IMG/VR virus record: IMGVR_UViG_3300008259_004660
Coordinates: 64,001-128,000 of that record
Length of the DNA: 64,000 bases
Source: a virus
Strand: one strand, 5' to 3'
How positions within the stretch are numbered: the first letter of the stretch is position 1; each line of letters starts with the position of its first letter. The notes beneath the pieces are model-generated. The model was not told the origin of the DNA. It worked only from the letters and a program-made list of their open reading frames with translations, and did no database searches. Position numbers and translations under genes: made by a program. Below are positions 5,490-49,324 of this stretch, piece after piece.

Positions 5490-5514
5490 GTACCCTACCC
5501 CATTATATTCATAT

Positions 5515-5790
5515 ATGCTGCGCTTATCATTCAAAATTCAAAACATATTCTCCAAAGACATATGGTATGATATGTACACATATACCAAACAGCTATCACG
5601 TAACAAATACTTTGAAAGCCAAGTAATATATTCAGACCACAATATATTTGAATTCGTATTAGATCTATCTTGGAATGGTAGAGATCATGTTGGTCCAAAT
5701 ATTGAATTATCATTATTTGGTTACCATATTATTGTAGGAATATATGACAGCAGACATTGGGATTATAAAGAAGGAAAGTGGGCGAGTTAA
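5515..5790 (+). CDS. hypothetical protein
   Basis: ORF from ATG 5515 (MLRLSFK). Confidence 0.6.
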   Translation: MLRLSFKIQNIFSKDIWYDMYTYTKQLSRNKYFESQVIYSDHNIFEFVLDLSWNGRDHVGPNIELSLFGYHIIVGIYDSRHWDYKEGKWAS

Positions 5791-5892
5791 ATACAAAAAA
5801 TAACACAAAAAATATATATAAAAAATGATATATAGATATATGTAACCGTATATATAATATATATCATAGAACAATCAACGAAAGAATAATAT

Positions 5893-6303
5893 ATGGCAAC
5901 AAAGAAACCCAGTTCAAAGAAGGCTGCAAAGAAAAGCAGCAACACAACTAAAAGATCAACAAAGAAAAACAAAAATAACGCGGCAGAAATTATTAACGCT
6001 ACAGAAAATAAAGAGCTTCAAACGCTCGCCGCTCAAGTTGATATAACACCAGTTGTAGAAAATAATAATACAGCAGAAACAGTAGTAGCAGAAACAGCAC
6101 AAGTTGATACAACAGCATCAACAGAACAAACACCGGATACATCGTCATTAGCATCAAGTGCCGCCGCTATACATAAAGACGAAGTTGTTGTTGAAAACGC
6201 ATCATATAACAATATGGTAGTTCCACAAACAAAAGATAATACATATGCGTTTATTATTGGTGGATTTGTTCTACTTATTACTTTGATGTTGTTTTTCATA
6301 TAA
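5893..6303 (+). CDS. Lys-rich N-terminus, C-terminally anchored membrane protein
   Basis: MATKKPSSKKAAKK start; C-terminal AFIIGGFVLLITLMLFFI. Confidence 0.7.
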   Translation: MATKKPSSKKAAKKSSNTTKRSTKKNKNNAAEIINATENKELQTLAAQVDITPVVENNNTAETVVAETAQVDTTASTEQTPDTSSLASSAAAIHKDEVVVENASYNNMVVPQTKDNTYAFIIGGFVLLITLMLFFI

Positions 6304-6329
6304 GAAATAACAAACATAAAAAGGTTATA

Positions 6330-6548
6330 ATGAGCAGAAAGAAAAAAGAAAACAAGGCATTATCCAAAGAAGATGATGCCTTTTTTACATATGAAGAAGA
6401 GAAAAAAGATTTAGGTACCCTATTGCCTAATAAAAATGATACTTCTAATACCAAAAATACCATATATGTGTTTAAAGATAAAAGTACAACAACTGTGTGC
6501 TATGATGGTAAAAATGTAAATTATATCACCGTACATATGAATTCTTGA
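6330..6548 (+). CDS. hypothetical protein
   Basis: 72-aa ORF in gene-dense + strand run. Confidence 0.5.
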   Translation: MSRKKKENKALSKEDDAFFTYEEEKKDLGTLLPNKNDTSNTKNTIYVFKDKSTTTVCYDGKNVNYITVHMNS

Positions 6549-6553
6549 AATAT

Positions 6554-6721
6554 ATGAGTAACAATACTAATAACAATATATCAAATATCAAGTATGATAG
6601 TCTAGAAGCTATGAAGGTAGAATATAGCTATCTAAGCAAAGAAGAAAAAAAGAAGTATATGAATATGCTTACTGAGTGGTATATGCGAGAAAAAGATATT
6701 CTTAGAAATGTTACAAACTGA
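6554..6721 (+). CDS. hypothetical small protein (55 aa, not in ORF track)
   Basis: Hand translation MSNNTNNNISNIKYDSLEAMKVEY...LRNVTN*. Confidence 0.45.
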   Translation: MSNNTNNNISNIKYDSLEAMKVEYSYLSKEEKKKYMNMLTEWYMREKDILRNVTN

Positions 6722-6779
6722 AATATAAAGTTGGGGAAATATACCCATATATACCATCAAATCGTGTATATACAAAAAG

Positions 6780-6814
6780 GTGGGATAGTGTGGGGTGAAA
6801 TGGGGCAATGTGGT
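6780..6814 (+). promoter_or_regulatory. Four (G/A)TGG(G/T) direct repeats at exact 10-bp period (MraZ-box-like)
   Basis: GTGGG-atagt-GTGGG-gtgaa-ATGGG-gcaat-GTGGT. Confidence 0.6.
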
Positions 6815-7035
6815 AACGTAATGATATAAAAAGGTATACTAGAGTATATACAAGAATAAAAAATATATTATACTATACGGAGTAGATAATAGTAGGTATA
6901 TTAGGAGTAGATAGATACTAATGCACGCCGCCCGCTGTCAAGCATTTTATTTTATGAGAAATTTCATATATATCTTGACAAAAAATTTAGGTACCCCCTA
7001 TAGCTAATTTATTCATATGTTGTCAAGATCAAAAT

Positions 7036-7051
7036 TGTTCCACGTGGAACA
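7036..7051. promoter_or_regulatory. parS: parS centromere-type ParB binding site
   Basis: Perfect 16-bp palindrome TGTTCCACGTGGAACA matching the chromosomal parS consensus. Confidence 0.85.
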
Positions 7052-7119
7052 TCTTTTTTGTTGACCTATACAATATAGTATGCCAAGATATTCAACGTTA
7101 AATAAACAACACACAAAAA

Positions 7120-7470
7120 ATGGCTAAGATTGATAACAATACCAACACTAAGAAGAACAGCAATAATATGCCCAAGGGTACAATGCCCAAGGACAAGCTA
7201 ACACGCTTTAAGCTCAAGGGTAATATTGATGAGCCGGGCGAATATAAGCATCGCACAATTGCTGATGTTAAGACAGTTGCTAAGAGTGCGCGTGCTGTTC
7301 ATACGTATAGAATGTATGTTCATGGTTGCACTGAAAAGCGTCTGCCATCTAGTCTTCGTCGTACTGTTCATTATTTCCTTACTCCTATGAGTAGAATGGA
7401 TAGTGATAATAGTAAAGATCGTAAGCCAGTTATTGAAGTTGATAACACACCTGAAACAAATAACACATAA
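7120..7470 (+). CDS. hypothetical basic protein
   Basis: 116-aa ORF behind TTGACC-17-CAAGAT promoter (7061-7089). Confidence 0.65.
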   Translation: MAKIDNNTNTKKNSNNMPKGTMPKDKLTRFKLKGNIDEPGEYKHRTIADVKTVAKSARAVHTYRMYVHGCTEKRLPSSLRRTVHYFLTPMSRMDSDNSKDRKPVIEVDNTPETNNT

Positions 7471-7475
7471 ATTTT

Positions 7476-7667
7476 ATGATTAGCATTTTGGTTGTAATTT
7501 CTGTACTATTCTTCTTGATTGTTGCTGTTTCAATTATTGAAAGCCGCAAGCAAAAAATTGAAGTAGATAAAAATGAATTTGACAAAGCTAATTTAAATAA
7601 ATGTGGCTGCGGCAAAACAAATGATATTGATGGTAACTGCGATGGCAGTCATATGAGCAATAATTGA
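7476..7667 (+). CDS. Membrane-anchored CDGSH [2Fe-2S] protein
   Basis: N-terminal TM helix; CGCGKTNDIDGNCDGSH. Confidence 0.75.
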   Translation: MISILVVISVLFFLIVAVSIIESRKQKIEVDKNEFDKANLNKCGCGKTNDIDGNCDGSHMSNN

Positions 7668-7700
7668 TAATAGTGTAAATTTAAACTATTATAGATTTTT

Positions 7701-7739
7701 ACCCATTATGGTTTTTCATAATTACCATAGTGGGTTTTT
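7701..7739 (+). terminator. intrinsic terminator
   Basis: ACCCATTATGG/CCATAGTGGGT stem plus T tract. Confidence 0.6.
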
Positions 7740-7783
7740 CATTTATATACAATATTTAAATTTTAGGTACCCACCACATCTAA

Positions 7784-7864
7784 ATGATATTGATATTAAT
7801 GTTTAGCGCCTTGATAATTTTGATCATTGCTATTATGATGTATGAGGATCATAAAAAATTTTAG
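7784..7864 (+). CDS. 26-aa hydrophobic micropeptide
   Basis: MILILMFSALIILIIAIMMYEDHKKF*. Confidence 0.4.
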   Translation: MILILMFSALIILIIAIMMYEDHKKF

Positions 7865-7875
7865 GTACCCCACCT

Positions 7876-7947
7876 ATGATAATATTTACACTATTGTTGA
7901 TTTTATTTTTGTGCTATATAGCATTATTGCATTATACAGAAGATTAA
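7876..7947 (+). CDS. 23-aa hydrophobic micropeptide
   Basis: MIIFTLLLILFLCYIALLHYTED*. Confidence 0.4.
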   Translation: MIIFTLLLILFLCYIALLHYTED

Positions 7948-8087
7948 AAATTTAGGTACCCCCCCCCCCTTCTTATATACAACAAAATATTGACAGCTGG
8001 CTAAAAATGTATATAGTACCAAATATCTTAAGCACATAATGTGTTTAGGTATAACATAACGAAAACAAAAAGTAATACGATAAATAT

Positions 8088-8477
8088 ATGAATAATATAT
8101 CATTGGTAGGTAATGTAGTTAAGGATCCAACAACACGTTCTACACCCTCGGGTAAGAATGTATCAACACTGCGTCTTGCGGTCAACAATCCTCTTAATGA
8201 CAAAGAAGTTCTTTTCATTGATGTTGATAGTTGGGACAAGCAGGCAGAATTTGTTGGTAAACATGTTAAGAAGGGCAGCTTGGTCAGTGTAGCTGGCCGA
8301 CTCAAGATGGATGAATGGGTAAAAGATGGTGCAAAGCAAAGCAAGTATTTTGTTGTTGCTGATCGCATCAACTTTGTTGGTGGAAAAAAGAAGGAAGATG
8401 GTGGTGTTTCAAGTGATTCACAAAGTGATGAATTTGATGATGCTGCTTTTGCTGCTGCCGCAGGAATCAAGCAGTAA
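8088..8477 (+). CDS. ssb: single-stranded DNA-binding protein
   Basis: LVGNVVKDP..TPSGKNV..LAVN, KKGSLVSVAGRL, acidic tail. Confidence 0.92.
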   Translation: MNNISLVGNVVKDPTTRSTPSGKNVSTLRLAVNNPLNDKEVLFIDVDSWDKQAEFVGKHVKKGSLVSVAGRLKMDEWVKDGAKQSKYFVVADRINFVGGKKKEDGGVSSDSQSDEFDDAAFAAAAGIKQ

Positions 8478-8489
8478 AATAAAATAAAA

Positions 8490-8511
8490 AATTGGGGAAA
8501 TTTCCCCAATT
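8490..8511. terminator. hairpin terminator after ssb
   Basis: AATTGGGGA/TCCCCAATT stem. Confidence 0.55.
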
Positions 8512-8520
8512 CATAAGTTC

Positions 8521-8565
8521 TTGAGTATCAATGAGTTACAAAGCACATAACTTGTTGATACTCAA
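8521..8565. repeat. Inverted repeat TTGAGTATCAA...TTGATACTCAA
   Basis: 11-bp perfect arms with inner AGTTA/TAACT pairing. Confidence 0.75.
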
Positions 8566-8856
8566 TTACTTACAATAAATTTATTTTTCCTAGCACCATT
8601 TTTTGTCTCGACTTTTTTTATTTTTTGTGCTATACTATTTGAGTCAGGGGGAGTCATTTTTTTTGACACAACCTTGGAATTTGGGTAGCCTTCGGTCCCC
8701 TACCCTTGGGTCACCCTCTCGGGATTCGCCCTGTCTCGGCTTTTCGGAATCTATCTCCTACTTCCACCGTGATACCATTATCGCAGAAATTAAAAAAAAT
8801 GGAAGCCCAACGAATTTTGTAACTCGTTGAGCTGTAACAACCGAACAAAAACCCCC

Positions 8857-9387
8857 TTAGTAGGGATTGTTGCTCTTGATCCATTCCTCAAGGTCAGCCT
8901 CGCTTGGAGGCGTTACGCCGAGCTTCATCACGTTATCCATTGAGGTATAGACCCTTGTGCCGTCCAATAGGCGCAACCCGATGCGATATGAGTTTGGGCG
9001 AAAGCTGTCCCTACCTTTCCAAACCACTTCACCCTTCGTTCCCTTGGCTACCTTGCGGCCCTTGACTACCTCAACCTCGCAGCCAACGTCGATAAACGCA
9101 CGGCGACCCATCAGCACGCTGTACGCCATCTTGGGGCCAACCTCACGGTTCCACCAAGCACGCGCCTTGGCTACCACTTCCTCCGTAGCGTCAGCGCGGT
9201 GATACTTGCTTGGGGCGTATGCGCGAGTGGTGCCGTCATCAATGGTGCGCACGCAACCCTGCTCTTCGTCCCAAACCGTCGCGTAGAAATCCGAGTCGTG
9301 ATAGCCGTTGCGCTCGCTGGTTCCAAGCACGCAACCCGTGAAATCACGGTCATAGTCACAAACCTTGGCTTCAATGATGGTACTCAT
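8857..9387 (-). CDS. hypothetical phage protein with KOW-like segment
   Basis: GYHDSDFYA and VEVVKGRKVAKGTKG; same promoter/GCACTATG cassette on the - strand. Confidence 0.75.
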   Translation of the reverse strand: MSTIIEAKVCDYDRDFTGCVLGTSERNGYHDSDFYATVWDEEQGCVRTIDDGTTRAYAPSKYHRADATEEVVAKARAWWNREVGPKMAYSVLMGRRAFIDVGCEVEVVKGRKVAKGTKGEVVWKGRDSFRPNSYRIGLRLLDGTRVYTSMDNVMKLGVTPPSEADLEEWIKSNNPY

Positions 9388-9665
9388 AGTGCAGCCAGTT
9401 TGATCAAATATTTTTAAAAGGTAAAGAAAAAAATGATGTACATTGAATTTTTCGCATCAACAAAATTTGTGTAGGAGTTGGTGCCCTACTCTTGGAGTTT
9501 CATCTCCTCATCTAGTCTCTTCGGGATCTTGCCCTACTCTCGACTACCAAAACAGTCTAGCAGAGTTTTTAAAAAATACCATCAAATAAACTTTTGTAAG
9601 TCGTTGATGAATTTTCTCAACTTTGTTCTTTACTTTTTTATTTTTTCCATCAAGATGTATGCACA

Positions 9666-47464: not shown

Positions 47465-49324
47465 ATGACTAAATCAAATGACATTGTTATTGGTATTGAC
47501 CTTGGCACGACGAATTCGTGCGTGGCTGTATGGCAAGCGGGTGAAGCTACAGTAATTACCAACTCGGAAGGTGCTCGTACTACCCCTTCGGTTGTTGCTT
47601 TTACAAAAAGCGGGGAAAGACTTGTTGGTCAAGCTGCTAAGAGACAGGCGGTGACCAATCCAAAGAATACAATTTTTTCGGCCAAGAGACTTATTGGTCG
47701 CAAGTTCAACGAAGTGCAGGAAGAAATCAAGAATCTTCCATACAAGGTCGTTGAAGGTCCAAATGGAGATGCTTGGATCGAAGTAACAGAGAACGGAGAA
47801 GCTAAGAAATATTCTCCTCAACAGATTGGCGCATTTGTTCTTGGAAAGATCAAAACCGATGCCGAATCATATTTGGGACAATCTGTGAAGAAGGCGGTTA
47901 TCACAGTACCTGCGTATTTTAATGATTCTCAACGTCAAGCTACCAAGGATGCTGGCACTATTGCCGGTTTGGAAGTTCTGCGTATTATCAACGAACCTAC
48001 CGCAGCATCCTTAGCCTATGGTCTAGACAAGAAGAAAGACGAGAAAATTGCCGTCTTTGACCTTGGCGGTGGTACGTTTGACGTTACCGTTCTCGAAATT
48101 GGGGACGGTGTATTTGAAGTTAAAGCCACCAATGGTGATACGCATCTTGGTGGTGATGATTGGGACAGAGCAATCATGGACCACATGGTTGCGGAATTCA
48201 AAAAAGAAAATGGTATTGACTTGTCCAAAGATAATATGGCTTTACAGCGTCTACGCGAAGAAGCCGAAAAAACCAAGATTGCTTTGTCTTCTGCAACATC
48301 ATATGATGTAAATCTCCCGTTTATCACGGCGGATGCATCTGGCCCAAAGCATTTGAATATGACAATTTCTCGTTCAAAAATGGAACAAATCTGCGAGAAG
48401 TTGTTTGAAAGAATGGATGCTCCATATAAGAACTGTTTGAAGGATGCTGGTGTATCAAATAGTGAACTCAATGAGCTTGTGCTTGTTGGTGGCATGACAA
48501 GAATGCCAAAGGTTGTTGATTATGCCAAGAAGTTCGGTGGTAAAGTTCCAAATCAAGGTGTAAATCCAGATGAAGTTGTGGCAGTCGGTGCCGCTGTACA
48601 AGGTGGTGTATTGAAGGGTGAGGTCAACGACGTATTGTTGCTTGACGTTACTCCGCTGACCCTTGCGATTGAAACCGCAGGAAATGTTGCGACGGCAATG
48701 ATTCCTCGTAACACAACAATTCCTGCTAAGAAGTCACAAGTGTTCTCCACATACAGCGACAATCAGCCTTCCGTTGATATTGTTGTATTACAGGGTGAGC
48801 GCCCAATGAGCAAAGACAATAAGCGTCTTGGAAACTTCAAACTGGACGGCATTCCGCCAGCACCAAGAGGCACTCCTCAAATTGAAGTGACGTTTGACAT
48901 TGACGTAAACGGCATTCTTCATGTCTCTGCAAAAGATCTTGGAACGGGCAAAGCTCAAGATATCACCATTCAAGGTTCATCTGGTCTTTCAAAGGAAGAA
49001 GTTGAAAGAATGAAGCAAGAAGCTGAAGCAAATGCTGATAAAGACAAAGAACTCAAGGAAAATCTTGAGACCAAGAATTCTCTTGACAATATTATCTATG
49101 GTTGGGAAAAACAACTAAAGGATGGTAACTTTGAAGATTCTGTCAAAACCGAAATTCAAAAAGGTATTGACAAAGGCAAAGAAGTGTTACAGAGTGGTGA
49201 TGTTGGAAAAATGAAAGATACTATCTCTGAACTTAGCAAACTCGGAGAACTTGTTTATAAGAACAAGTCTAATGGTGGGAAAGGAACTCCAGAAGATCCA
49301 ATCGAACCAGAAGTAGTAAGCTAA
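47465..49324 (+). CDS. dnaK: Hsp70 chaperone DnaK
   Basis: [39 protein letters not shown]. Confidence 0.98.

Follow-up and report, generated by a model that had tools for sequence, protein, structure and literature searches.

The window analysed here is a stretch of 64,000 nt, bases 64,001–128,000 of an IMG/VR virus record that is linear, 184,824 bp long, ~78% complete and 38.6% G+C. The virus is a large tailed phage of the myovirus type, and the window encodes baseplate-wedge genes, Hsp70, SSB, a helicase and six tRNAs. Judged by a baseplate protein, its nearest cultured relatives are Microcystis phage Mel-JY01 (45%) and Flavobacterium phage immuto (37%). A DNA search of cultured phages with the intergenic hub described below gave zero matches.

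The hub lies in a 398-bp gap (6722–7119, 31% GC) that separates a 58-codon ORF (6545–6721) from a 116-codon ORF. It contains TGTTCCACGTGGAACA, a perfect 16-bp palindrome that agrees with the chromosomal parS consensus at 16 of 16 positions. The same string serves as parS2 and parS3 in P. aeruginosa (PMC4368675) and as parS in P. putida (PMC7022226). In the window it is the sole match to the 16-mer when up to three mismatches are allowed, and the whole record has a single TGTTNCACGTGNAACA, which is this copy. The preliminary description had claimed a perfect chromosomal-type parS in an AT-rich intergenic control region with no parB in the window, and on each of these points it was right. The absence of partition genes extends to the whole record (~78% complete), in which ParB_N, HTH_ParB, AAA_31 and CbiA/ParA-type ATPases were searched for and none was found. 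One PHROG match to a 'partition protein', at 47465–49324, was rejected as Hsp70/DnaK. This gene is full-length (Pfam E = 4e-259) and shares 52–61% identity with copies of very large uncultured phages.

Table 1. Features of the hub and the gene downstream of it, in window coordinates
Feature	Position	Strand	Remarks
AAATTTAGGTACCCCC element	6983..6998	+	conserved part of the hub; flanked by TTGACAA (6975–6981) and TTGTCAA (7020–7026)
15-codon open frame MLSRSKLFHVEHLFC	7017..7064	+	runs across the palindrome; resembles the remnant of a ~47-aa membrane micro-ORF
Imperfect inverted repeat, 47 nt	7020..7066	+	surrounds the palindrome; outer arms GTCAA/TTGAC, then A-run/T-run, then parS stem
parS-type palindrome, CC/GG variant	7036..7051	.	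identical to P. aeruginosa parS2/3 and to sites in candidate-host genomes
T-run TCTTTTTTG	7052..7060	+	3' of the stem; with the 6-bp stem and ACGT loop, a weak intrinsic-terminator-like site
Putative early promoter of the 116-aa gene	7061..7089	+	TTGACC (7061–7066), 17-nt spacer, CAAGAT (7084–7089); predicted from sequence
116-aa gene	7120..7470	+	conserved, downstream of the hub; anchor for orthology

An exact copy of the 16-mer is expected by chance 2.6e-5 to 9.9e-5 times in this genome (Markov order 0–2), and any of the 16 N-variants of the parS consensus 1.2e-3 times. Perfect palindromes of 16 bp are in themselves nothing unusual in this genome (7 observed vs ~3.9 expected). The parS match is thus improbable in one genome, and a few such accidents are expected over a scan of very many windows. 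The half-site GTGGAACA is 2.6-fold enriched genome-wide, with ~30 copies on one strand at genome positions 174,700–184,800, beyond the window. This excess was rejected as a signal of ParB sites, as the copies are Gly-Gly-Thr codons of a collagen-like fibre gene. The earlier suggestion that the hub might be origin-proximal found no backing in the GC skew of either the window or the whole genome: cumulative skew rises steadily over all 185 kb and does not turn close to the hub (~71 kb), although this is a weak test, nearly all genes being transcribed from one strand.

The inverted repeat around the palindrome folds at −14.5 kcal/mol (z = −3.5), and none of 200 shuffles folded as well. At the palindrome itself the hairpin has 6 pairs, 3 of them G-C, and a loop of 4 (ACGT); its terminator-like score is weak, on both strands. 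The hairpin is positioned 315 nt past the last clear ORF, within the 15-codon remnant frame. An Rfam scan of 5500–9500 gave no match close to the palindrome. Elsewhere, at 8491–8510, directly after the SSB gene, is the longest perfect palindrome in the genome, the 20-bp ATTGGGGAAATTTCCCCAAT, which is likely a bidirectional terminator.

Only 9 bp separate the end of the palindrome from the TTGACC −35 box. We infer that TTGACC-N17-CAAGAT is the early promoter of the 116-aa gene because relatives show TTGACC-N16-TATAGT or TATATT at the aligned place. The 116-aa protein has at least 90 homologues at 48–91% identity, none with a Pfam domain. Considered as a possible partner or regulator, it returned zero Pfam, PDB-sequence, Atlas and fold matches, and its structure model is mediocre (pLDDT 70).

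The AAATTTAGGTACCCCC element is present in nine genome copies, every one on the + strand, and stands upstream of the 116-aa gene or of a micro-ORF in 23 of the 26 relatives examined. In the form AAATTTAGGTACCC(C), the copies lie at window positions 6983–6998, 973, 5482, 6407, 7759, 7857 and 7948 and at genome positions 49806 and 60596. All nine fall within genome 49.8–72 kb, often 5–10 nt upstream of an ATG. Since the element is an invariant block in the alignment of the hub with relatives, AAATTTAGGTACCC(C) is a candidate for a promoter or start signal specific to the phage. A G-rich block at 6760–6830, with TGGGG-type repeats at ~10-bp spacing, is common to one relative, L002, and in part to L003 and L004.

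The same position in related phages

The relatives compared were 3 viral and 25 lake-metagenome loci, with 55–88% protein identity in the 116-aa anchor gene. The preliminary description had tied its proposal, that the phage recruits host ParB, to conservation of the site in relatives; at the orthologous spot upstream of the 116-aa gene, the 16-mer is found in 0 of the 28. The closest of those examined, L125 (88% aa), has a deletion at the parS place, between the conserved A-run and T-run. In L131 (79%) the sequence is TGTTCATCGTAGAACA, which keeps the stem TGTTC/GAACA and the T-run and has lost the CACGTG core. This is the best of the 28 relatives against parS, with 3 mismatches, all in the core. 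The outer arms (GTCAAG/TTGACC) and the A/T runs are common to the window, L125 and L131, while the centre differs. L002 (78%) shows unrelated bases at the parS position, and the other relatives have unrelated sequence or a micro-ORF. Three relatives (G001–G003; 6.6, 30.9 and 138 kb) were scanned over their entire records, and these too have no parS with up to two mismatches. Taken on its sequence, the 7036–7051 site is a genuine perfect host-type parS and a lineage-specific singleton.

In most relatives the parS position is occupied by a micro-ORF of ~47 codons for a membrane peptide. The tree of the anchor gene has it in 19 of its 26 rows, in both main clades, and not in the neighbours of the window. 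The carriers are L003, L126 and L132–L147 (e.g. L003:3790–3935); their peptide ends in ...DIEW(T/S), and the stop codon falls inside the next TTGACA −35 box. The subclade of the window has lost the micro-ORF, and the window itself retains a piece, GTCAAGATCAAAA... (compare L126). Because the 15-codon frame also left there runs through the palindrome, the palindrome appears to lie in a young, decaying spacer. Its flanks agree with those of host and other phage parS sites at 13 of 24 positions at best (mean 6.8). Import of the site from a host or from another phage was rejected on this lack of likeness, and the site therefore seems to have arisen in place.

The hairpin could instead be a selected intrinsic terminator or attenuator that stops transcripts of the TTTAGGTACCCC unit upstream before they reach the following promoter; the resemblance to parS would then be pure coincidence. 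The combination of stem, loop and T-run, the z-score of the fold and the retention of stem and T-run around a different loop in L131 are consistent with such a role, and palindromic terminators do occur elsewhere in this phage, as after the SSB gene. The arrangement is also like that of Rho-independent terminators between phage early units, in which a short stem-loop and a T-run directly precede the next promoter. Unlike those terminators, however, this stem is short, G+C-poor and unconserved in most relatives. Only 3 of its 6 base pairs are G-C; no hairpin occupies the parS position in L125, L002 and most other relatives, and the best 34-nt hairpin at the site (−7.2 kcal/mol) is inside the range of the relatives upstream of the gene (−3 to −8.5). 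We consider this explanation unlikely.

Candidate host and the phi29 precedent

A DUF1501 protein encoded at 1044–2324 has its best cellular relatives, at 54–62%, in Opitutaceae, Opitutales and Verrucomicrobia MAGs. From this one transferred gene, the host may tentatively be placed as an Opitutales-type bacterium. All four candidate-host genomes encode ParB. Two of the four (G004 and G007) hold the exact 16-mer as a single copy inside mnmG/gidA, and a third has a version with one mismatch. The perfect sites within the mnmG/gidA coding sequence are at L159:1501–1516 and L160:1501–1516 (Opitutaceae/Opitutales MAGs). Across the order of G007 ('Opitutales bacterium'), 49 of 61 sampled genomes have 1–3 consensus matches, and nearly all of these are spelled exactly TGTTCCACGTGGAACA. 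As the order in which the host-derived gene has its best relatives uses the same spelling as the phage, binding by the predicted host ParB is plausible; if the host is from that group, its ParB should, going by what is established for ParB–parS pairs, recognise the phage site.

There is a precedent for such use. The virulent Bacillus phage phi29 has five host-type parS sites, and host Spo0J is used for entry of its genome into the spore, according to PMC2731898, which summarises Meijer et al. 2005, and PMC9437464. Like phi29, the lake phage has no ParB of its own and bears a parS of host-chromosome type, here in the spelling of the candidate host. The two differ in that phi29 has five sites, with genetic evidence for host Spo0J and for genome trapping in spores, whereas the lake phage has one unconserved site known from its sequence. 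They also differ in that the lake phage is at least 185 kb and of the myovirus type, and its probable host is non-sporulating. A capture of the phi29 type would be expected to show more than one site in each genome, common to the family of the phage; here there is one site, and the relatives lack it. Beyond phi29, our search of the literature found no report of lytic phages using host ParB. The 16 bp are likewise identical to chromosomal parS of P. aeruginosa, P. putida and Opitutales-type genomes. Chromosomal sites, however, are near the origin, often in small clusters, and kept across species, whereas the phage site is solitary, intergenic and lineage-specific.

These parallels raise the possibility that a large myovirus-type lake phage of Verrucomicrobia (Opitutales) recently wrote the exact centromere of its host into a hub that holds an early promoter. 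As the phage DNA comes in, ParB-CTP clamps of the host would load on it beside that promoter, and SMC or ParA might follow. For the phage, the benefit could be that its DNA is positioned or compacted, that it is inherited in cells that grow slowly or are in a carrier state, or that ParB is titrated away from the host origin. The perfect 16/16 match is situated in intergenic sequence rich in A+T, the least likely place for it to arise by chance, and the spelling common in the Opitutales-type order, the ParB genes of the candidate genomes and the phi29 example all point in this direction. Against it are the missing site in the 28 relatives and in the 138-kb relative, the single copy where phi29 has five, and a host call that depends on one transferred gene at 54–62% identity, with 39% GC in the phage vs 48–65% in the candidate-host loci. 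A capture of the phi29 type is possible in this phage, though less likely than not.

Orphan parS sites across IMG/VR

The exact 16-mer is found in at least 120 IMG/VR contigs. Three controls, palindromes with the base composition of parS, were found in 3, 66 and 12 contigs, so that total parS counts are only moderately raised. The first control alone (3 matches) was rejected as a baseline, since it would overstate the enrichment, and the intergenic contrast was used instead. Among the matches listed (loci L005–L124), 29 of 123 parS sites have no open frame of at least 80 codons across them. For the control palindromes the corresponding figures are 0/3, 2/66 (both artefacts at locus ends) and 1/12, or about 1 in 81 (L166–L246). 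The intergenic parS sites away from locus ends number 25 among the matches listed and form 19 groups by shared neighbouring proteins. A ParB-like ORF is nearby in 4 of the 120 loci, again among the matches listed. Of the AT-rich records with an intergenic site, 12 of 14 lack ParB_N, including a complete 60-kb phage with terminal repeats. The neighbours of the intergenic sites are true phage genes, i.e. tail tube and sheath, major head, portal and primase-helicase. Because their frequency is far above that of the three control palindromes, orphan intergenic parS sequences in phages, as a class, are not accidental. This enrichment over controls, in records that mostly lack ParB_N and among phage genes, also favours the use of host ParB at 7036–7051.

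One myovirus lineage keeps parS in a diverged spacer between phages with 81% identical tube proteins, which likewise speaks for that use. At the same spot in 80 relatives of this tail-tube lineage, the site is perfect in 9, differs by one base in 1 and by two in 23, and is missing in the other 47. The centre is variable (ACGT, ACGC, ACAA, ACAT, ACGA), whereas the stem GTTCC/GGAAC is constant. A conserved hairpin would fit this pattern at least as well as a ParB site, and probably better, which weakens the lineage as support for capture of host ParB. The tail-tube family has at least 600 IMG/VR matches, with a parS-like hairpin ~250–340 nt upstream of the tail-tube gene (L247–L326; examples at L247:955 and L300:885) and CTGGAAC repeats nearby.

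In a further set of phages, of 32–49% G+C, a terminator precedes a perfect parS and a ribosome-binding site follows it, with the parS 15–28 nt before the start codon (L044:6483, L036:1509, L039:4628, L116:5993 and L097:2640). The gene downstream is unannotated in L036, L039, L044 and L116 and is a major head gene in L097. Such placement of the same 16-mer by unrelated phages, before structural genes or between terminator and ribosome-binding site, suggests regulatory use. At 7036–7051 the perfect dyad just upstream of the −35 box could accordingly be an operator, at about −45 to −60, through which another phage- or host-encoded DNA-binding protein would tune the promoter of the 116-aa gene. 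There is, however, no second copy or half-site cluster nearby, the GTGGAACA excess belonging to fibre-gene codons; the downstream gene is conserved in its 90 or more homologues and the dyad is not; and a search for a candidate regulator turned up none. We regard an operator as very unlikely.

Origin and meaning of the palindrome

The reading we prefer, at a probability of about 0.5, is that the 16-mer is a young, lineage-specific, incidental palindrome and not a maintained part of the control region of this phage family. On this view, the conserved TTTAGGTACCCC element and the early promoter of the 116-aa gene once had a small gene for a membrane peptide between them; its decay left a fast-changing spacer, and the palindrome arose there in place. 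Once transcribed, the palindrome would fold into a small stem-loop with a U-run behind it, whose role would not go beyond weak termination or insulation ahead of the promoter that follows. The match to parS would most likely be coincidental or very recent. If the host is of the Opitutales type, ParB-CTP would be expected to load on the site during infection, perhaps without consequence. Both a terminator role and ParB binding are here predictions from what the palindrome resembles.

The incidental reading is favoured by the lack of orthologous sites (0/28) and of sites in the three whole records, the loss of the micro-ORF, the dissimilar flanks, the terminator-like hairpin that folds better than shuffles, the single copy, and the absence of partition genes and of a skew signal. 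The chance expectation of 3e-5 to 1e-4, the intergenic enrichment in IMG/VR and the spelling shared with the candidate host order tell against it. So does the weakness of the hairpin, a 6-bp stem that L125 does not keep. The prior for a meaningful site is raised by the class-level enrichment and the identical candidate-host spelling, and it is lowered by a similar factor because the site is unconserved in 28 relatives, is present in single copy and lies in a decaying spacer. As a type of mechanism, the proposed use of ParB is plausible and not without precedent; in this family of phages, however, it does not pass the test of conservation.

If the site works, borrowing of ParB would not be peculiar to phi29 and spore formers: large phages of lytic type that infect environmental bacteria would do it too, and the 16-mer would be a sequence-only clue to the host. 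If capture is true, a device known from phi29 would reach further, to T4-like phages and to a host that does not sporulate, and the present phage would be one case of a widespread, fast-turnover carriage of orphan host parS by ParB-less phages. For 7036–7051 the evidence points the other way, since the site is a singleton without conservation. The general result is more useful: in IMG/VR, perfect parS sites in the intergenic DNA of phage contigs without ParB far exceed control palindromes in number, and any single case therefore needs a conservation test before it is believed.
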